Source: an uncultured archaeon | Lineage (GTDB): Archaea > Altiarchaeota > Altiarchaeia > IMC4 > SCGC-AAA252-I15 | Reading direction: 5' to 3' | NCBI GenBank assembly: GCA_964587725.1 | Contig: CAZPLO010000001.1 | Coordinates: 215,308 to 236,276 of the forward strand | DNA length: 20,969 bases | Shown: piece by piece, positions 6,737 to 16,030 of the stretch | Numbering within the stretch: position 1 is the first letter of the stretch | Layout: every line of letters starts with the position of its first letter | Program-made: the position numbers and the translations under genes | The notes under the pieces: model-generated | The model's input: the letters and a program-made list of their open reading frames with translations, nothing else | What the model was told of the DNA's origin: nothing | Databases searched by the model: none

Positions 6737-7369
6737 ATGGTCTATCGTTTCAGGCGGGGCCTCATCGGTATCGGCGTATTGATTATACTGATAGCAACCC
6801 TGCTGGTTGCTGCGGCGGCATCGGTTCTTCTACTGTCCACCACCGTCAACCTCCAGACCAAAAGCCTTGAAACCAGGCTGGAGACGGAGCAGAGCGTCAT
6901 AAACGGGGTTGAAGTGGTGTCTATTATGGCCACCGACGGCAGCGAAGGAGCAGACCTCGAACACTTCGAGATGGTGATGCGGCTGCAGTCCGGGTCTGAC
7001 ACCATAGGGTTGGTTAACAACACCTTGATTGTTTTCACCACACCCACCGGCAGCCAGAGCCTGAAATACAACGACACCATGGGCAACACTGACGCGCTAG
7101 CAGCCGGCACCGGAGACTACACGGTGGAGTGGCTGAAGACCGCATCGGACTACGAGACAGGGTATTTGAAGCGCGGAGATTTGATTAAGGTCCGGTGGAA
7201 CCACCACGACGTCACCCGCACATCCACGACAGGAGGCATAGGTGAGGAGGAGCGGGGCAAGGTGAAGGTTATACCGCACTTCGGCCAGGTCACGCAGATA
7301 GAGTTCAGCGTGCCCAAGCACTTGCACAACACCCGCGTCCAAGTGTATCCGAGGGAAGTTCGCATCTAG
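6737..7369 (+). CDS. Archaellin (archaeal flagellin)-like protein with class III signal peptide
   Basis: RRG/LIGIGVLIILIATLLVAAAASVLL resembles the archaellin N-terminus (K/R-G cleavage site, GIGxLIxxIAxxLVAA); downstream RLQSGSDTI and YLKRGDLIKV match archaellin-type patterns. Confidence 0.8.
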   Translation: MVYRFRRGLIGIGVLIILIATLLVAAAASVLLLSTTVNLQTKSLETRLETEQSVINGVEVVSIMATDGSEGADLEHFEMVMRLQSGSDTIGLVNNTLIVFTTPTGSQSLKYNDTMGNTDALAAGTGDYTVEWLKTASDYETGYLKRGDLIKVRWNHHDVTRTSTTGGIGEEERGKVKVIPHFGQVTQIEFSVPKHLHNTRVQVYPREVRI

Positions 7370-8625
7370 GTGTAGTCCGTTATCCTGCGCTGACGGAGTA
7401 TGTCCGAATTTTCAACATATTTACGTATAGGGACGGTGAGCCTGGTGGAGATGTCATTCAACGCCGCCTCCAATGTGTCGAATTTCACAGGCTTTTTTTC
7501 GAATGCTTTGCGGACGTTCTCGCGCACCTCCCACACACCCACCGGCATCACGTAGCTGTCGTATATTTCACGGAATACTATGACGCGGGCCTGCCTGCGC
7601 ATATTATTCAGCGCCTCCGCCGCTGCGAAACGGCCCGCATAGTATCCACCGCCCTCGTTGTAGGCGTACTCCCACCTGCCGCCGTGCCCCTCATGCTCCC
7701 GTAGGATGGTTGGTCCTGCATTGCCCATGGTCCACAGGGTCTCCGGTGACCATGCCTCGAACTGTTCGAACTCCCATGCGCCGGGCATCAATAGGATGTC
7801 GAAGTGGTTGCCCAAGTACGTGTTTTCGTAAACGAGTATGTCACGGAGTTCCGGGTAGTCGCGGATGCGCTGCATCAGCGCCTTACCGAGTATGTCGTCG
7901 ACCGCTGTTATGCTCCACCGTGTCGGCACCATTTTTTTATCGTCTTTCACGCCAAGTGAACCTGAAGAGAGGACGGTGGTTAAGTAGTAGACGTCCAGGT
8001 TCCGGTCGAATAGTTTCGAGACCTGATCCGCTGCCTTCAAGTCGTCCGACACTATGTAGTCTACGCGCCGCGGTATCACAGGGTTCTCGGTAACCCAGAA
8101 CTTACGCAAATCCCCGGAGGCCCCCATGGGCTGGTTGACGGGTGAGAATGAGAGGCTGAACGTAGGCTTGCGTTTATAGTGGGCTTCCACGTCAACAGGC
8201 TTGACAGACAAAGCAAGCTCCTGCATGAGGTCGATGAACCGGCTCCTGTCCTTCACCGGTCGTCGCTGCTTGCCCCGCACAACCAGTGACCGCATCCGGA
8301 CGATGTCGTCGAACCCCAGCCCGTACCATGCGCCGGGGTTGTCCAATACGTCGCTGCCGTCCTCCTGCAGGGAAGTCATCGGCCCCACAGAAACCGTCGG
8401 ATAACCCTTCCAACCCACAAATACACTCGGTGAGGGCCCGTACATCTCCGCCTTCAACTTCCCCTCCACGGGATTGCCCACCCGTATCCTGTCCAGCAGC
8501 GGACACGAGTCTCTGCCGCACAACAACCTGCCGCCCTTGCAGCGGAGACACTGCTGACGGCTCAAACCCATCGACGCCACGTTCTCATGTATCTCTGCCA
8601 CGGCTCCTCGTTTGTGTTTGCGCAT
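7366..8625 (-). CDS. nreA: Nre family DNA repair protein (NreA-like) with C-terminal PIP box
   Basis: N-terminal CLRCKGGRLLCGRDSCP, PSVFVGWKGYP, VPTRWSITAVDD, GGYYAGR, PVGVWEVRENVR and C-terminal QRRITDY. Start placed at ATG 8625 (alternatively 8571) rather than the track's 8808. Confidence 0.92.
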   Translation of the reverse strand: MRKHKRGAVAEIHENVASMGLSRQQCLRCKGGRLLCGRDSCPLLDRIRVGNPVEGKLKAEMYGPSPSVFVGWKGYPTVSVGPMTSLQEDGSDVLDNPGAWYGLGFDDIVRMRSLVVRGKQRRPVKDRSRFIDLMQELALSVKPVDVEAHYKRKPTFSLSFSPVNQPMGASGDLRKFWVTENPVIPRRVDYIVSDDLKAADQVSKLFDRNLDVYYLTTVLSSGSLGVKDDKKMVPTRWSITAVDDILGKALMQRIRDYPELRDILVYENTYLGNHFDILLMPGAWEFEQFEAWSPETLWTMGNAGPTILREHEGHGGRWEYAYNEGGGYYAGRFAAAEALNNMRRQARVIVFREIYDSYVMPVGVWEVRENVRKAFEKKPVKFDTLEAALNDISTRLTVPIRKYVENSDILRQRRITDYT

Positions 8626-8627
8626 GT

Positions 8628-10814
8628 TCAGTATTTTTTGAGTATTCTCTTGGGTTTTCGTTTGGGTTTTACGCCTTCGCCTTTGAGGTTGTAGCGGAAG
8701 TCGTCGAGGTATGCCTGGCGTTGGGCGGGGTTCCATGTGCGGACGTTTTCCAGGTGGCCTGTGTCGCGGCTCCACATGCTCACCCGGGGGCTCTTGCAGG
8801 CGGAGCATTTACCTTGGAAGCCTATCGTGACCCTGCCGCATTTGCTGCAGAATGTGAGGTCCCGGGACATGGTAAGGAAGCCGACTCCCTTCCGCCGGAG
8901 CACACGGTTTATGAGTTTGGAGAGGGATTCCACGTCGAATCCGGAGTCGGAAAGCCGGAGGTGCGTTATGGTTCGCCCGTTGACCAACCGGTTCAGCCGG
9001 CCCTCCACACGGAGCTTATGGTTCAACCGCCGGGTGTTCACGTAGTGGGTTTTGCTGTAGTAGGTTGTGTCGCCTCCCTGGGCTACAAACTTGTCCTTGT
9101 ACCTCAACGCGTCCAGTGCCGCGAATCTCGTGTAACAGACTCCCTTCGGCGCGCCGGTGAGTATGATGTCGAGCTCGCTCTCCCCCCTGAAGGTGTCGAC
9201 GGTCTTCATCATCGACTTCAGTATCTTGGATGCGAGTGCGCCGCCGGACTTGGATTTAAGGTCCGACCCCGACTGCTGCTTCACCAGCTCGTTTAAGCCG
9301 GTGTATGAGATGACATACAGTTGCTTGTTGGGGTTGTAGTATCTCACGCCCGCCGCCTTTTGCTTAAGGAACGGGAGCAGGTTGTGGCTGAGGTTCCTGG
9401 ACAGCACCTTCCGCTTCAGCAGAAGAACTTCCAACGACTTCTTCAGTCGGTTCTCCAGGACGTTGAACAAGTCCCTGCCCGGCTTGTATCCGAGTTGCGG
9501 TAGGTTTATGCTCACGTGCTGTGCTGTACCCCTGCGGAAGCCATAGTAGTGTCTGCCCGTGTCTAGGAAATACGGCAGGCCGAACTTGGACGCCAACGCA
9601 GCAGTCTTCTCCATGAGCTCGCCAGACGGTTTGCTTACCATATTCACCTTCAGCTTCGGGTATATGAACGGCTTCCCCAGGCTGTCGCCGTCGAGGCCCA
9701 CATCCAATATCGCGTTGAAGAGTGTTTCAGCCTCCTCGGCGAAGTCAGCATAGGTGTGCCTGGTGGTTCTGCCGTCTGGCTGCACCGCCTTCACATCCCG
9801 CAGGTGTTTCGGCACGGCGGTGTCACAGCAGAGCGTCGCGTAAATCGCCTGCCCCCCCTTCCCCACACCCGTCTGGTATATTTCGTAGAACAGCATCTGC
9901 ACCAGCTGCTTCACCTCTTCCAAATCCAGGCCGCGTATGTATGGTGCGAGAATAAAATTGAAGTCCTCTATGTACTGTTCCCGGGAGCACTCTGTCTGGC
10001 CGGCAATCAACACCTTCAGCGCGTGCATGAACGCGGATGTGGGGTGCTTGGCAGGACTCGCAACCGCGGTGTATTCGCCGGTGCCGTCCACCTTCAAGCC
10101 TTTGCGGAGGAAGAACCGGAGGTCATGTGAGAAGGTGGTGGGGCGGAGGGTGAAGTAGTTGAGGTCGTGTATGTGAATCTGCCCCGACAGGTGGGCGTCC
10201 GCCAGGTCTATGGGAAGGACGTTCATGAGTGCGTATTCGCGGGCTATCTGGTCGCTCATCACCTTATGCACGGCTTCGGGGCTGTACTGCGCTATTTCAC
10301 GGGAGCCCTCCTCCACCAGCTTCCGGACGTCGTACAACGGCATACCCAGTCGTGTGTAGCGGGCGCGGACGGACTCCATCCCGTGCTCCAACAATTTCAC
10401 GTTCACAATCTCCCGTATCAACGGTGCGGTGACGTAGTTCAACCGCATCCTCCCCAGCTCCTTAGCCACCTCCCTGGCAATCCTCTCCGCGAACGACCGG
10501 TCCACCCGAGTCTCCGCCATCAACGAGCCGACTATGCGTTCCTCCTGGAAGTATTCGAGGCTGCTACTGGAGGTCCGCACCTTCAGATTGGAGCGGTAAA
10601 CGTATTGTTCCGCTATCTCAGGGTTTATCTTCTTAAGTTTGATGTAGACTCGCATCCGGATTTCGTCTGTTGTGATGCCGTCGTATCCTTCCGCCTTCAC
10701 CTCCGAAGCAATCTTGGCCGCCAGCTTCAACGGGGCGCCGGCGGACATGCAGGTCTGGATTATCTTGTTGCGGTTGAACCCAACCAGCTGTTTGTTGCTT
10801 TTCTGAACCTTCAT
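8628..10814 (-). CDS. nrdD: Class III (anaerobic) ribonucleotide reductase NrdD homologue with two ATP cones; catalytic motifs degenerate
   Basis: Two ATP-cone-like repeats, TRLGMPLYDV, ADAHLSGQIHIHDL, GDSLGKPFIYPK, SINLP, GLNELV, C-terminal CSKC...CSAC zinc site and SRDTGH at the glycyl-radical loop position. The symbol indicates homology, not proven activity. Confidence 0.85.
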   Translation of the reverse strand: MKVQKSNKQLVGFNRNKIIQTCMSAGAPLKLAAKIASEVKAEGYDGITTDEIRMRVYIKLKKINPEIAEQYVYRSNLKVRTSSSSLEYFQEERIVGSLMAETRVDRSFAERIAREVAKELGRMRLNYVTAPLIREIVNVKLLEHGMESVRARYTRLGMPLYDVRKLVEEGSREIAQYSPEAVHKVMSDQIAREYALMNVLPIDLADAHLSGQIHIHDLNYFTLRPTTFSHDLRFFLRKGLKVDGTGEYTAVASPAKHPTSAFMHALKVLIAGQTECSREQYIEDFNFILAPYIRGLDLEEVKQLVQMLFYEIYQTGVGKGGQAIYATLCCDTAVPKHLRDVKAVQPDGRTTRHTYADFAEEAETLFNAILDVGLDGDSLGKPFIYPKLKVNMVSKPSGELMEKTAALASKFGLPYFLDTGRHYYGFRRGTAQHVSINLPQLGYKPGRDLFNVLENRLKKSLEVLLLKRKVLSRNLSHNLLPFLKQKAAGVRYYNPNKQLYVISYTGLNELVKQQSGSDLKSKSGGALASKILKSMMKTVDTFRGESELDIILTGAPKGVCYTRFAALDALRYKDKFVAQGGDTTYYSKTHYVNTRRLNHKLRVEGRLNRLVNGRTITHLRLSDSGFDVESLSKLINRVLRRKGVGFLTMSRDLTFCSKCGRVTIGFQGKCSACKSPRVSMWSRDTGHLENVRTWNPAQRQAYLDDFRYNLKGEGVKPKRKPKRILKKY

Positions 10815-10937
10815 AACTCACCCTCAACCGAAGAACCAGGGGGGATAACGTATTTGTTCTTGGACGGTAAAAAATGGGTGGTTGTCCACGGTTGGAGTGA
10901 GTGCTTATTAGTATGGACGGGGATAAGATTCAGGTAC

Positions 10938-11540
10938 ATGAGGGCCCACGCTTTGTTGATGGCTGTGCTGCTGTGCGGGTGCGTGCAGCAGACAGGCGAA
11001 ACAACCACCACGTTGGATGACGTGATGGTTTTACCGCCGGACACCTCGACCACGACTACTTCGACCACGACAAGCACCCTTTCCGCTCCGACCACAACAA
11101 CCCACCGCACAGCATCCACAACCCCCACAACCACGTTAAACCCCATCATAGAGACGTTCCAGGACGAAGGGGGGGGAATCTGCAGGGTGGACGGGAAGCC
11201 TGTGGTGCGGATGTACAGCAGAAGCGACTGCGACCACTGCAGGTGGAGCGATCCCATATTCGACCGGGTTGTTGAGGAATACGCCGACAGCGACCTCATT
11301 GTGGCACTGCACTGGGTGTTCGACCTCGAAGACGACAAGCTGACAGACGGTGTGGAGGGGGGCATACCTGACAGTGAATACGATATCTTCTTCGACGACC
11401 GGAACCCCACCAGGACAGTGCCTTATTTCAGCTTCGGATGCAGGTTCACCCGAGTAGGCAACGGCTACCAGCTGAGGAAAAGACCGGATTTGGAGGAACG
11501 GGAGTACCGGGCGGTCATAGAACATCTTCTTAGGGGGTGA
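10938..11540 (+). CDS. Predicted lipoprotein: lipobox, Thr-rich linker and thioredoxin-fold domain
   Basis: MRAHALLMAVLLCGC lipobox, poly-Thr linker, VRMYSRSDCDHCRW (CxxC) and TVPYF (cis-Pro-like). Start ATG 10938 lies within the track ORF 10167..11540. Confidence 0.8.
   Translation: MRAHALLMAVLLCGCVQQTGETTTTLDDVMVLPPDTSTTTTSTTTSTLSAPTTTTHRTASTTPTTTLNPIIETFQDEGGGICRVDGKPVVRMYSRSDCDHCRWSDPIFDRVVEEYADSDLIVALHWVFDLEDDKLTDGVEGGIPDSEYDIFFDDRNPTRTVPYFSFGCRFTRVGNGYQLRKRPDLEEREYRAVIEHLLRG
11001..11135 (+). repeat. Low-complexity ACN-rich tract encoding the Thr/Ser/Pro linker
   Basis: TTTT...TSTTTTSTTTST...PTTTT...STTPTTT. Confidence 0.7.
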
Positions 11541-13161: not shown

Positions 13162-14370
13162 TTAATCCAGGAAACCCGGCCTGCTGAGGTGGCGGCGGGC
13201 CCTCGGCGGCACATCATAGACGCACACATCCAGCTCTCTATCGGCCGGCTTCAGCGACTCCTCAGATGTTTTACCGCACACCCTGCATTTGACGGCCGAG
13301 CCCTTTCCCGCAGAAGTCATCTTCCTGCCGCAGCAGACCGGACGCTCTTTCTCATACGTTTCCGCCAGCGAGTCTACGCGGATTTTCTCCAGGTTCAGTG
13401 TCCCAGCGTATTTTCCTATGCCACCTTGCACGGTAGCCTCGTCGCCCAGGCGGAGACGCCTGACAACGTCTCTGAAGCTGCCGGTCGGCTTGTATGCCGC
13501 GCAGTCAATCGATGAATTATGGTCTGATAGGGTGAAGACTACGTGGCCGCCCTCAATCGTCTTGGGGGGGTTTGAAACCGTGCCGGACACAGTAACGCAG
13601 TCGTACGGCCTTATTTCGTCTATCTTCTTCCGGCGGAGGTGGGCGTCCGTGGCCTGGTTGGTTATGAACAGCTGGGTTGAATCCGCCGGCTCAGAGCACT
13701 CTATCACCCCCCAAGCAGACGCCAACACTTCAGGCCCCACCCCCCTTATGCCGCAGAGGACAGGGTCGTTTCCGCGGGGGGTGACGAGAACCTGATTGGT
13801 TTCCCTGTCCACGCTGTCGAATACCCGGGGGAAAAACCGTTCATCCATTCTGAACACGGAGTCTGCATTGACCCGGCGCGGCCTGCCGCAGTTTCGTGGA
13901 TTACGGTATGCTATCAACTCATATGTTACGTCTCCTGTGAAGCCTATCGCAGCCAACGCGCCGATGACGCCGCGACCATTCTTGAACTTGTGGACGCGCG
14001 CACCAACGCCGGCTGCAACGCGTTCAGCCTCCTCCAAGGACACAAGCTCAGACACAGCACGTCGATAGAAGTCCTCAACCTCTGGAGTCACGCGGTCGGA
14101 GTCAAATAATACGACGCCAGGGTTTGTGTTGTCGTCTCCCAGCATAGCGTATTTCTTGACGTACGACAACACTGTTTCTTCAACTCTTTCGGCGTCGCCT
14201 TCGGTTTCGAACGCGACCGCTCCGTTCCCCCTGGTCCGGTATGGTATGTTGGGGTTGAGGCGGATTAACCTGGGGTTTTTAGCGACACCCAGTTTGCTGC
14301 ACAGCTTCGAAGCCAGGTATGTGGTACACATGCCTGACAGGGCGTCTGTGTCGTCTATGCCTACAAACAT
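13162..14370 (-). CDS. tiaS: tRNA(Ile2) 2-agmatinylcytidine synthetase
   Basis: VGIDDTD..GMCTTY, RLIRLNPNIPYRTRGNGA, GRGVIGALAA, DPVLCGIRG, TNQATDAH, OB fold (GGHV...AAYKPT), zinc ribbon and RRHLSRP. Confidence 0.96.
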   Translation of the reverse strand: MFVGIDDTDALSGMCTTYLASKLCSKLGVAKNPRLIRLNPNIPYRTRGNGAVAFETEGDAERVEETVLSYVKKYAMLGDDNTNPGVVLFDSDRVTPEVEDFYRRAVSELVSLEEAERVAAGVGARVHKFKNGRGVIGALAAIGFTGDVTYELIAYRNPRNCGRPRRVNADSVFRMDERFFPRVFDSVDRETNQVLVTPRGNDPVLCGIRGVGPEVLASAWGVIECSEPADSTQLFITNQATDAHLRRKKIDEIRPYDCVTVSGTVSNPPKTIEGGHVVFTLSDHNSSIDCAAYKPTGSFRDVVRRLRLGDEATVQGGIGKYAGTLNLEKIRVDSLAETYEKERPVCCGRKMTSAGKGSAVKCRVCGKTSEESLKPADRELDVCVYDVPPRARRHLSRPGFLD

Positions 14371-14397
14371 TTTAGGTGTAGTATTATGTCCGTACAG

Positions 14398-14405
14398 GTT
14401 TAAAG
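14398..14405 (-). promoter_or_regulatory. Putative TATA box for tiaS
   Basis: TTTAAA about 30 nt upstream of the tiaS ATG (14370). Confidence 0.45.
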
Positions 14406-14456
14406 CGGTGTGACTCCCTTTTGTGAATGCTTTTTCGAATATAAAAACCAGTGTTT

Positions 14457-14603
14457 AAAGTAAGTCACACAAGTAAGTTATGTAAGTCAAATGTCGTGAC
14501 TTATTTGACTTATTTTTTGACTTATTTTTTGGCTTTTTTCAGGATTGTGAAAGGTTTTTAAACAACTAAGTCAATTTACTTAAAAGCTAAGTCATATGAC
14601 TTA
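14457..14603. repeat. Array of TAAGTCA/TGACTTA heptads in direct and inverted orientation (iteron- or operator-like)
   Basis: Exact TAAGTCA at 14461, 14483, 14567, 14588; exact TGACTTA at 14497, 14506, 14518, 14597; one-mismatch copies at 14474 and 14576; perfect 16-bp palindrome TAAGTCATATGACTTA at 14588-14603. Confidence 0.9.
14552..14563 (+). promoter_or_regulatory. Putative BRE/TATA of the AAA+/wHTH gene
   Basis: GAAAGG followed by TTTTTAAA, immediately upstream of two palindromic heptad pairs. Confidence 0.5.
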
Positions 14604-14613
14604 AATTGGCGGA

Positions 14614-15744
14614 ATGGAACGTGAGGAGTACTATAAACGGGTGGGCTGGCGGAAAAGCCCCTTCATCAAATCAACATCCCTTGACATACCAATAATAGAA
14701 CGCGTAGAGGAATACGAGGAGGTCTGCGAATGCATAGGCGGGTGGGACAGGATAATGGTCATAACAGCCCCCATCGGATACGGGAAAACGACATTCATGA
14801 ACCAACTGCTGATAAAAAAACCAAGGGGGATAGAATACGTAGTCGCATTCAACGCCTACGAACCTGTTGAAGAAGTCATGAAACGCATTAGGGGGGCGCT
14901 GCCATTCCTTAAAAGACTGTTCGCCGACGCAGACCGCACGTCTTTCGGTGAAATGATTCAGAGCCGCCTGGGGTCGGACAAGATGCTGCTCATATTCGAC
15001 GAGGCCCAAGACTACGACGAAGACCTGTTCAAGTGGCTGAGAATCCTCAACGACCGCGCAAACAACCTGTTCATGATATTCCTGGGCCTCCCGGGGCTGG
15101 AAGACACGATAACCGCCGAAAGCAGCTTCAGAGACCGTAAGTCAAAGTCTATCAGACTCAGGTCCTTTGAAGTCGAGGACCTTGCAGAAATGGTTAAGGA
15201 GAGAATACAGTGGGCTGGCGGCAGAGACAGCAAACCCTTCACAGAAGACGGACTGAAACGCCTCTGCGAGTCCTGCAACCACGTCCCACGACAGCTGCTA
15301 GAAAACGGGCAGCGTGTTATCGAGGCAGCAGCCAAGGAGGATTTGGACTCGATAGAGGGAGGGTTTGTTGAGCGCAGCCTGGGCGAGATACGCTCAAACG
15401 ACGTGAGAACATCAGAAACAGTGTTTTCAGAGGATTCGGAGAGGAAGAAGGTGTCTTATGACTTTATCGACGACCTCTCACCCACCCAGCAGGATATCGT
15501 GAAACTGCTGCTCACCCACGAGTCGCTGAGCATATCGGAGATTGGGGAGGAACTTGGAAAGGACATAAGGAGTGTGGGATCGTTGATACGGAAGCTCCGA
15601 GGCCTCAACAAACGGGAGGTCGAGAGAAAGCCGGACGTCCCCTATCCAGTGGTTGTCAGACTCGGGAAAGAGGCGCGTATGGGGCGTCTACAGTACGTTT
15701 ACAGCCTTTCCGACAACGCTAGGCGCATTCTCGCGAGAGATTAA
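14614..15744 (+). CDS. AAA+ ATPase (ExeA/AAA_22-like) fused to a C-terminal winged helix-turn-helix
   Basis: YYKRVGWRKSPF N-terminus, Walker A APIGYGKTT, Walker B LLIFDEAQD, arginine-finger region SFRDR, PFTEDGL...VPRQLL sensor II, then LSPTQQDIVKLL..LSISEIGEELGKDIRSVGSLIRKL...YVYSLS wHTH. Confidence 0.9.
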   Translation: MEREEYYKRVGWRKSPFIKSTSLDIPIIERVEEYEEVCECIGGWDRIMVITAPIGYGKTTFMNQLLIKKPRGIEYVVAFNAYEPVEEVMKRIRGALPFLKRLFADADRTSFGEMIQSRLGSDKMLLIFDEAQDYDEDLFKWLRILNDRANNLFMIFLGLPGLEDTITAESSFRDRKSKSIRLRSFEVEDLAEMVKERIQWAGGRDSKPFTEDGLKRLCESCNHVPRQLLENGQRVIEAAAKEDLDSIEGGFVERSLGEIRSNDVRTSETVFSEDSERKKVSYDFIDDLSPTQQDIVKLLLTHESLSISEIGEELGKDIRSVGSLIRKLRGLNKREVERKPDVPYPVVVRLGKEARMGRLQYVYSLSDNARRILARD

Positions 15745-15799
15745 AGTATGTCAGAAAAAACGTCTGAAACCGCCGTATGATGAACTCTCACATACCCGA

Positions 15800-15870
15800 C
15801 AAATTTATTGCTTGTTTATATTCTTTGAGATATATTATATATATGTTTAAATAACTCTGTGATATATTAT
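15800..15870. other. Very AT-rich tract (promoter of the RHH gene and/or DNA-unwinding element)
   Basis: AAATTTATTGCTTGTTTATATTCTTTGAGATATATTATATATATGTTTAAATAAC...GATATATTAT, in an otherwise GC-rich window. Confidence 0.6.
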
Positions 15871-16030
15871 GAGTAAGCGCATCTTGGTGACGTTGACGGA
15901 TGAACAGTATGAAAGACTGAAGGAATCACCCGCCCTGGGTGAAAGCGACGCCGAAAAACTCCGCAACAGCTTCCTCATATACGATAATTTGAAGGACCTC
16001 CTGGAAGTCATAAAGACCATGCGCAGATAG
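15869..16030 (+). CDS. Small ribbon-helix-helix (CopG-like) DNA-binding protein, 53 aa
   Basis: Below the ORF track cut-off. Hand translation: MSKRILVTLTDEQYERLKESPALGESDAEKLRNSFLIYDNLKDLLEVIKTMRR. Shows the alternating beta strand (KRILVTL), helix A, a G-x-S turn and helix B; TATA-like sequence upstream. Confidence 0.8.
   Translation: MSKRILVTLTDEQYERLKESPALGESDAEKLRNSFLIYDNLKDLLEVIKTMRR

Follow-up and report, generated by a model that had tools for sequence, protein, structure and literature searches.

A class III ribonucleotide reductase homologue in Altiarchaeota that has very probably lost its chemistry and may persist as a nucleotide-responsive regulator

The window analysed here, a stretch of 20,969 nucleotides from an uncultured archaeon of the Altiarchaeota, carries on its minus strand a gene for a 728-residue protein (P0001) that is homologous to NrdD, the class III ribonucleotide reductase (RNR). 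The Pfam NRDD barrel (PF13597) matches residues 176-700 with 283.7 bits, which establishes homology to the family, and the ATP-cone family (PF03477) matches two stretches with 60.8 bits in total, each of which also exceeds the cut-off of 25.8 singly (Table 1). On the NCBIfam equivalog for NrdD (TIGR02487), the protein scores 277.8 bits and thus stays below the cut-off of 326.35, with the match split at residues 419/427, while P0029, a catalytic relative, reaches 538.3 bits. A previous reading of this DNA, made from the letters alone (the sequence-only reading), had described an intact frame with a series of deviating NrdD motifs; the frame and all motif positions hold on the minus strand, with HIHDL at residues 214-218, RPTTFSHDL at 224-232, SREQ at 277-280, PYF at 414-416, GTAQHVSINLP at 429-439, YYSKT at 585-589, the tail at 716-728, and APKG and RDTGH as listed in Table 1.

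Table 1. Positions of the NrdD-like gene, its motifs and its neighbours in the window, and loci of the related type B forms
Feature	Position	Strand	Basis or remark
NrdD-like ORF (open reading frame; P0001)	8628..10814	(-)	728 aa; TGA stop at 8628-8630
ATP-cone 1 (~aa 1-72)	10599..10814	(-)	Pfam PF03477; 37.2 bits in whole-genome ATP-cone search
ATP-cone 2 (~aa 78-154)	10353..10583	(-)	34.9 bits in whole-genome ATP-cone search; alignment
Site of lost NxN flap (aa 173-178), EIAQYS versus ENANLQYN in catalytic relatives	10281..10298	(-)	alignment
HIHD (aa 214-217), retained HxHD triphosphate-binding motif	10164..10175	(-)	alignment; role from PMC11226230
Thr227 codon, position of the bottom-face catalytic Cys (E. 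coli C175)	10134..10136	(-)	alignment
Short bridge (aa 417-428, LDTGRHYYGFRR) replacing the deleted 26-residue finger loop	9531..9566	(-)	alignment
APKG (aa 555-558) in place of TPAE	9141..9152	(-)	alignment
Zn ribbon CxxC...CxxC (Cys656, 659, 670, 673)	8796..8849	(-)	alignment
RDTGH (aa 683-687), remodelled glycyl-radical loop	8754..8768	(-)	alignment
Basic C-terminal tail (aa 708-728), shortened catalytic-type tail	8631..8693	(-)	tail comparison
nre (archaeal Nre_N + Nre_C, 419 aa)	7366..8625	(-)	Pfam
TATA-like element CATTTTTTACC, ~50 nt upstream of the nrdD-like start	10866..10876	(-)	read by eye
Type B loci, family f1	L050, L054, L055, L056, L051
Type B loci, family f5	L052 6210-8105; L053 1450-3372
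Type B examples			P0074, P0087, G048, G035, G043-G047, G008, G009

What has been lost was defined by aligning 111 homologues (640-830 residues), which comprise a close clade of 26 proteins around P0001 and a reference set of 65 catalytic relatives. All 26 clade members have a 26-column gap where the catalytic relatives read ...YQCCSFLMPL..., and the 12 residues that bridge it in P0001 (417-428) contain no Cys; the missing finger loop with its radical Cys, which was the core of the sequence-only reading, is therefore a feature of the entire clade. Residue numbers were anchored on NrdD of E. coli K-12, taken from its genome record, in which C175, C384 and G681, which we take to be the catalytic residues, correspond to Thr227, to the second Cys of the deleted QCC and to Gly686. 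Position 227 is a Thr in 23 of the 26 clade proteins and a Cys in 65/65 catalytic relatives (RPTT replacing RPFC), and further motifs have been exchanged throughout the clade: SREQ for SGGQ, PKG for PAE, YYSK for YYTN, GRT for GGA, and RDTGH for RITGY. All replacements that had been noted by eye (Thr227, APKG, SREQ, YYSKT, and RDTGH with Gly686 kept) thus recur in the alignment. At the TPAE site the Glu is gone and Lys557 and Gly558 are fixed in 26/26 proteins, whereas the glycyl loop retains Gly686 but carries Asp684 for Ile/Val and His687 for Tyr. Two losses had gone unnoticed, namely deletion of the NxN flap (ENANLQ to E--IAQ) and a shift of charge over the whole protein. Overall, at 21 positions the clade and the 65 catalytic relatives each have a fixed residue, but not the same one, and many of these, including T227, R278, E279, K557, G558, D684 and H687, lie in active-site motifs.

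The significance of these positions is best seen in NrdD of P. copri, in which Cys416 on the central loop initiates the radical, the NxN flap binds the substrate, HxHD binds its triphosphate, Glu581 links substrate and flap, and the highly conserved Tyr712 adjoins the radical Gly (PMC11226230). From this set, only HxHD (HIHD) and the Gly survive in P0001. The protein holds nine Cys (22, 276, 329, 330, 560, 656, 659, 670 and 673), of which only the four Zn ligands are invariant (26/26); C276 is found in 23/26, C560 in 22/26, C330 in 13/26 and C329 in 5/26 clade members. New chemistry on Cys276, Cys329/330 or Cys560, as once suggested for this protein, is disfavoured, given that none of these residues is invariant. 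Judged by its sequence, the NrdD-like protein very probably does not reduce ribonucleotides. In a separate set of 60 long homologues (at least 900 residues), at least 13 carry an insert, probably an intein, exactly at YQC/C of the finger loop, and other recurrent insert sites lie at about positions 242, 290, 339 and 612 of P0029. It is suggestive that imprecise loss of such an intein could have produced the 26-residue deletion.

What has been kept is equally well defined. Conserved in both the clade and its catalytic relatives are 88 positions, including HxHD, the four Zn cysteines, and the stretch from D231 to G246, which corresponds in the alignment to the specificity-site hairpin of P. copri NrdD; ATP-cone 2 is almost invariant between the two groups. 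The presence of both cones and of the CxxC/CxxC zinc site, already recognised by eye, is borne out by the Pfam matches and by the 26/26 conservation of the Zn ligands. An AlphaFold2 model of P0001 reached a mean predicted local distance difference test (pLDDT) of 91.6 and a predicted template modelling score (pTM) of 0.84, and its best Foldseek matches are class III RNRs. VIA-align superimposed the model on T. maritima NrdD (4u3e) over 523 residues, C-terminal domain included, with Z 35.3 and a root-mean-square deviation of 2.7 A; solved NrdDs give Z 30-35 and other glycyl radical enzymes about Z 20. By sequence and by model, P0001 has the NrdD fold.

The loop-deleted protein is maintained across a well-delimited group of organisms. 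A search of 5.8 billion proteins with P0001 as query returned 25 further proteins of about 706-770 residues with 54-73% identity, all from Altiarchaeota where the sources give names; identity then drops to about 45%, in proteins of about 760-800 residues. Among nine genome-derived orthologous coding sequences, pN was 0.19-0.34 and pS 0.57-1.0 (saturated), and dN/dS was 0.04-0.23 in the 16 of 36 pairs for which it could be computed. With 56-70% identity to its orthologues, the protein takes a mid-range place among the housekeeping genes around it when the same pairs of genomes are compared. Purifying selection acts on it in at least four genera. Authenticity of the locus was assessed with four sequencing runs (all DNA, from one study, possibly the source of the window DNA): the contigs assembled from each of three runs extend over 8400-11000 and show neither differences nor indels, and the fourth covers the region in pieces. 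Given that these contigs are identical and that the deletion is common to 26/26 orthologues, the loop deletion is not an assembly artefact. Neither close relatives with an intact loop, nor an assembly deletion, nor relaxed selection, the outcomes that the sequence-only reading had named as speaking against it, were encountered, and the dN/dS comparison that it proposed indicates the opposite of relaxed selection.

In the genome of the window (G000; 1.56 Mb, 92% complete), no cognate activase for this protein was found. A Pfam family search of the genome found one NRDD match, the NrdG activase model (TIGR02491) has 0 matches in G000, and no protein of G000 passes TIGR02495, the best reaching 33.9 bits against a cut-off of 131.15; the two weak matches to the latter are an AmmeMemoRadiSam radical S-adenosylmethionine (SAM) enzyme and a SPASM-type maturase. 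Neither nrdG, whose absence from the window had been noted previously, nor a second, intact nrdD was thus found in the genome. In a comparison of 61 genomes of the phylum, the loop-deleted form is present in 10, which belong to four genera, all of the window's own family. NrdG scores above its cut-off in 27 of the 61 genomes but in 0 of these 10, and a second NrdD match was found in none of the 10 (P0001 as query; Pfam family for G000). On this basis, the suggestion that the protein pairs with an intact NrdD and serves as the regulatory half of such a heterodimer is not supported. One genome of the family (G032, contig C94, locus L035) is the sole one with a true NrdG (234.5 bits), which lies beside a distant NrdD that is 30% identical to P0001; no copy of the loop-deleted gene was seen in G032.

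A class II RNR (NrdJ) is encoded in 8 of the 10 genomes with the loop-deleted form; completeness of the other two is 74% and 81%. In G000 the enzyme (712 aa) lies about 13 kb from the nrdD-like gene and about 2.5 kb past the window end (C1:237339-241739, L002), in the order small NifU-like ORF, class II RNR, CobA/CobO/BtuR corrinoid adenosyltransferase. It has an ATP cone, the NPCGEQ motif and a Cys-rich C-terminus, features by which G000 can be taken to make its deoxyribonucleoside triphosphates (dNTPs) with a complete class II (B12) RNR. There are four ATP-cone matches in G000: NrdJ, the two cones of P0001, and a stand-alone cone ORF of about 92 aa (C13:5266-5487, L078; 39.4 bits); no NrdR-like protein is among them.

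Beyond its active site, P0001 differs from catalytic NrdDs in its charge. Its net charge is +43 and its isoelectric point (pI) 9.75, and from this composition its surface is predicted to be strongly basic. The net charge is +21 to +43 in the nine genome copies and +24 to +48 over the 26 clade proteins, as compared to -16 to +16, about -4, in catalytic NrdDs of the order. Conserved gains of K/R at 17 positions and conserved losses of D/E at 18 make up the shift, which is strongest in residues 421-545. Among the 545 ORFs of G000 with at least 350 aa, for which the median is -10, P0001 is the 5th most basic (top 1%). Scanning of 12 other most basic long ORFs (at least +30) identified a Pfam family in three, including ribosomal protein L3 and a PUA-domain protein.

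The basic C-terminus, which had been viewed as an addition, turned out to be a remnant. Of the 65 catalytic relatives, 25 have a tail of at least 15 residues ending in an acidic ...NGWxSDLDF motif, and the clade retains only the basic helix of this tail. The acidic-aromatic end, more fully ...G(V/K)NGWxS(D/E)(L/F/Y)DF, is found in P0029, P0031, P0033 and others, and may be a docking site for an activase or a reductant. A PIP box (Qxx[ILMV]xx[FYW]) in the tail was considered and dropped; the core pattern is present in 0/25 tails, and looser variants in 4 and 6 of 25. The C-terminus of Nre reads ...QRRITDYT.

The window's protein is not the only degenerate NrdD of this lineage. A second form of about 690 aa, here called type B, occurs in other genera of the window's family and in both genomes of family f5 (Table 1). 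Its finger loop has the full length but is devoid of the Cys pair, the bottom Cys is mostly missing, and the chain stops short of the Zn/glycyl domain; ENAN-like and SGGQ motifs are kept in part, and cones and barrel are retained. No NrdG accompanies type B forms in the 61-genome comparison, and most are basic, with the exceptions of G048 (-10) and G043 (+9). In a quick maximum-likelihood tree of 57 rows, both degenerate types form one clade (SH-aLRT, the approximate likelihood-ratio support, 100) that is sister to the catalytic NrdDs of Altiarchaeales (95), and the loop-deleted type is monophyletic (100). The free tree nests the loop-deleted form among type B with weak support (81-82), and a tree in which type B is held together is not rejected by the approximately unbiased test (p-AU 0.377); several independent domain losses within type B are thus not upheld. 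A locus next to TctA is common to the loop-deleted form, to type B and to the catalytic nrdD of sister families, and the window's gene consequently occupies the place of their normal nrdD. Different catalytic parts have been lost in different sub-lineages, while cones and barrel are conserved throughout. These differing losses in sister lineages suggest that a second, non-catalytic function was perhaps already present in the active ancestor.

Degenerate NrdDs might not be confined to this clade. A rough screen covered 88 rows, namely 84 cluster representatives of the P0001 search, three search proteins and E. coli NrdD; of these, 57 deviate at one or more of the catalytic Cys/Cys/Gly positions in an automatic alignment of a sample biased to neighbours of the degenerate query. 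Among the screened proteins (P0121-P0264) are some of about 750-770 aa that form a group in which loops such as RSLAKY or RSSATY replace RVxGY. A locus search with P0147, a member of another degenerate lineage, gave one distant match only. The alignment suggests that many more non-canonical NrdD lineages exist unrecognised; NCBIfam holds no model for degenerate NrdD lineages. Given that several sources annotate the clade as "anaerobic ribonucleoside-triphosphate reductase", the organisms would be wrongly credited with an oxygen-sensitive dNTP pathway, and the proportion of deviating rows indicates that both the annotation problem and the underlying biology may reach far beyond one clade.

The closest neighbour of the nrdD-like gene is nre, which encodes a DNA-repair factor and whose ATG lies 2 nt past the nrdD-like stop; given this gap, the two genes are probably co-transcribed. 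The nre gene is directly downstream in 8/9 loci of the loop-deleted form and in 4/7 type B loci. Of 13 regions long enough to judge, 6 likewise have nre downstream of a catalytic nrdD, at a distance of 0.3-2.6 kb, so that the neighbourhood is ancestral and has been tightened in the window's family. The latter count also weakens adjacency as proof of joint function. A predicted complex of the barrel part (residues 176-728) with Nre scored 0.00, which weighs neither for nor against an interaction.

On the other side, an ORF at 10811-11410 (-) that overlaps the nrdD-like start was considered as an operon partner and set aside: its translation is of low complexity and without a Pfam family, and we read it as an antisense shadow that is probably spurious. 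The true upstream neighbour is divergent (10938-11540, +) and encodes a 200-aa protein whose signal is of the lipoprotein type (...LLCGC...) and which also has a Thr-rich linker and a CDHC motif, again without a Pfam family. By eye, TATA-like elements similar to CATTTTTTACC precede five orthologues. The region upstream of the nrdD-like gene (10840-10880, -) reads CCCATTTTTTACC, about 10 nt, then GAACAAATAC; upstream of nrdJ (L002, 3490-3535, -) we find CCCATTTATTTATTATC, then GAATCAAATAAC, and the five orthologues show a similar ...TTTTTAC... ACAATAC arrangement. Such a recurrence may reflect no more than ordinary promoter layout, or else an operator common to these genes. Elsewhere in the window, positions 14000-16000 have a G+C content of 0.47-0.50 as compared to about 0.56, around a gene for an AAA_22/STAND-like ATPase (376 aa, 14614-15744) that is syntenic in relatives despite its low G+C. 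Scans of the window for tRNAs, Rfam families and repeats yielded nothing relevant.

Taken together, we propose that the gene encodes a class III RNR that is no longer an enzyme and is retained for a non-catalytic job, as a pseudoenzyme that acts as a nucleotide-responsive regulator or adaptor (probability roughly 0.55). That fold and cones are kept while the chemistry is not follows from purifying selection, from the 21 fixed swaps centred on the active site, from the lack of NrdG and of a second NrdD, and from the presence of a class II RNR. This part of the sequence-only reading stands, as does its choice of a (d)NTP sensor as the best interpretation, whereas its other two options, a heterodimer and new Cys chemistry, do not. 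In the proposed mechanism, the protein would still bind ATP/dATP and dNTPs through its cones and specificity site, and binding would shift its conformation or oligomeric state, as in catalytic NrdDs. The signal would then pass through the basic surface to a polyanionic partner, either nucleic acid or an acidic protein that takes part in replicating or repairing DNA, and the protein would be expressed together with Nre. The specific role of a nucleotide-responsive regulator or adaptor has about even odds, and nucleic acid as the partner is less likely than not. An even broader idea, that NrdD-derived proteins without radical chemistry constitute a widespread class of nucleotide-sensing regulators and that the basic protein described here couples dNTP status to Nre-mediated repair or to RNR expression, is doubtful at this point.

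Several observations weigh against a regulatory role. The output side of the model is conjecture throughout. ATP-cone 1 has K-S-N-K where the consensus reads K-R-D-G, though the catalytic relatives of the lineage diverge equally. Gly686 and the Zn site have been kept and would not be needed in a pure sensor, which hints at a structural or other role of this domain. Type B is devoid of the Zn/glycyl domain and includes two proteins that are not basic, so that neither feature can be required for any function common to both types. Adjacency to nre is weak evidence of joint function because the neighbourhood is ancestral and, with the genome 92% complete, absence of nrdG is unproven for G000 alone.

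Of the competing explanations, two fare best, though we consider both unlikely. The protein might be a trans-acting partner of the class II RNR that binds the reductase or its cone and thereby modulates dNTP synthesis. In line with this idea, the type B gene immediately precedes that of the class II RNR in both family f5 genomes, in the same orientation and with 77 and 37 nt between them, and a CobA-type corrinoid adenosyltransferase follows. This operon-like order is the strongest indication of a tie to dNTP synthesis. The two genes are also 3 kb apart in G043 and 13-16 kb apart on one contig in G000, G051 and G039, and we have described above how regularly the class II enzyme accompanies the loop-deleted form. 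However, the two genes do not form one operon in the window, NrdJ has a complete ATP cone of its own and hence no need of a borrowed one, and the dimer interfaces of NrdD and of class I/II RNRs differ. Alternatively, the protein could be a nucleic-acid-binding regulator and functional analogue of NrdR, in which the cones read ATP/dATP while the basic body and Zn ribbon bind DNA or RNA. The extreme and conserved charge, the Zn ribbon together with the basic C-terminal helix, the lack of an NrdR-like protein among the ATP-cone matches of G000, and the similar TATA-proximal sequence upstream of the nrdD-like gene and nrdJ (by eye, n = 2) are all compatible with such a role. Yet, no known DNA-binding domain was found in the protein, its sister type B has neither Zn ribbon nor tail, and nucleic-acid binding does not follow from charge alone, which cannot be calibrated here given that most other very basic long ORFs of G000 lack a Pfam family.

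It is improbable that the remodelled barrel harbours a new, non-radical enzyme, with Arg278, Glu279, Lys557, Asp684, His687 and Arg614 as candidate residues and HxHD holding the triphosphate. Fixation of the active-site swaps (R278 26/26, E279 24/26, K557 26/26, D684 24/26, H687 23/26) and retention of HxHD would agree with this possibility, but such a pattern would also arise if the new residues served only to pack and stabilise the space that the loop has vacated, and type B does not have them. A reductase that still works, with another Cys and another activase, is very improbable. Although Gly686 and the Zn site are kept and the AmmeMemoRadiSam enzyme of G000 is PflA-like, the only invariant Cys are the Zn ligands, the protein has lost the loop that would bring the radical to the substrate, as well as the NxN flap, the TPAE Glu and the Tyr after the Gly, and AmmeMemoRadiSam-sized matches are also found in genomes with a true NrdG. 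Odd motifs are nonetheless no proof of inactivity: homologues of glycyl radical enzymes that have the Cys and an activase proved active despite lacking the Gly (PMC11528403), which is the opposite of the case described here and a caution against inferring inactivity from motifs alone. A decaying pseudogene or an assembly artefact, for which nothing speaks beyond the lost motifs, can be dismissed in view of an intact frame in 26 proteins and nine genomes, dN/dS of at most 0.23, the pLDDT of the model and the identical contigs of three runs.

We are thus left with the nucleotide-responsive pseudoenzyme as the preferred interpretation, and comparison with known systems shows what would be new about it. 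The nearest counterparts are the catalytic NrdDs of Altiarchaeales (P0029, 796 aa, 45% identity), which share the two cones, barrel, HxHD, hairpin, Zn ribbon, Gly loop and TctA locus. They differ in a full finger loop with YQCC, in RPFC, ENAN, SGGQG, TPAE, YYTNS and RITGY, in the acidic ...NGWxSDLDF end, in their score on the equivalog (538 versus 278 bits), in a near-neutral charge, and in their co-occurrence with NrdG. Type B resembles the loop-deleted form in clade, locus, cones and barrel, in the loss of the loop Cys, in the lack of NrdG and in the basic charge of many members, and differs from it in its full-length loop and in the absence of the whole C-terminal domain. Solved class III RNRs (the cone-bearing enzymes of P. 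copri, 8p2s/8p23, and S. thermophilus, 9dca/9d3x; also T. maritima 4u3e and phage T4 1hk8) have the same fold at 16-20% identity, but they are active, and P0001 has none of four features that they possess: the Cys loop (Cys416), the NxN flap, Glu581 and Tyr712. In P. copri NrdD, whether flap and glycyl domain are ordered or disordered depends on the binding of ATP or dATP to the cone (PMC11226230). We propose, by analogy, that cone-driven switching of this type may have been reused in the loop-deleted protein.

Full-text literature, with subscription journals and supplements outside its scope, yielded no paper on a non-catalytic NrdD. Loss of catalysis in an RNR fold is not without precedent: yeast Rnr4 and the R1 homologues of beta-herpesviruses are non-catalytic class I RNR homologues that were kept for other roles. 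Like the protein described here, they have an RNR fold minus catalytic residues, but they belong to another RNR class and to other organisms, and their roles are known. A non-catalytic class III NrdD would therefore be the new element. To our knowledge, the allosteric machinery of RNRs is thought to serve only their own catalysis; in the loop-deleted protein it would have outlived the chemistry, offering a natural experiment that separates cones and specificity site from radical catalysis. We also know of no NrdR in archaea, and the protein points to a possible missing regulator of archaeal dNTP metabolism. NrdR is a bacterial repressor of RNR genes of about 150 aa, composed of an ATP cone and an N-terminal Zn ribbon, with no barrel. 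Both proteins combine ATP cone and Zn ribbon, and a read-out of ATP/dATP is proposed for each, whereas DNA binding is conjectural for the archaeal protein. If true, it would constitute an archaeal counterpart of NrdR made from the enzyme itself.

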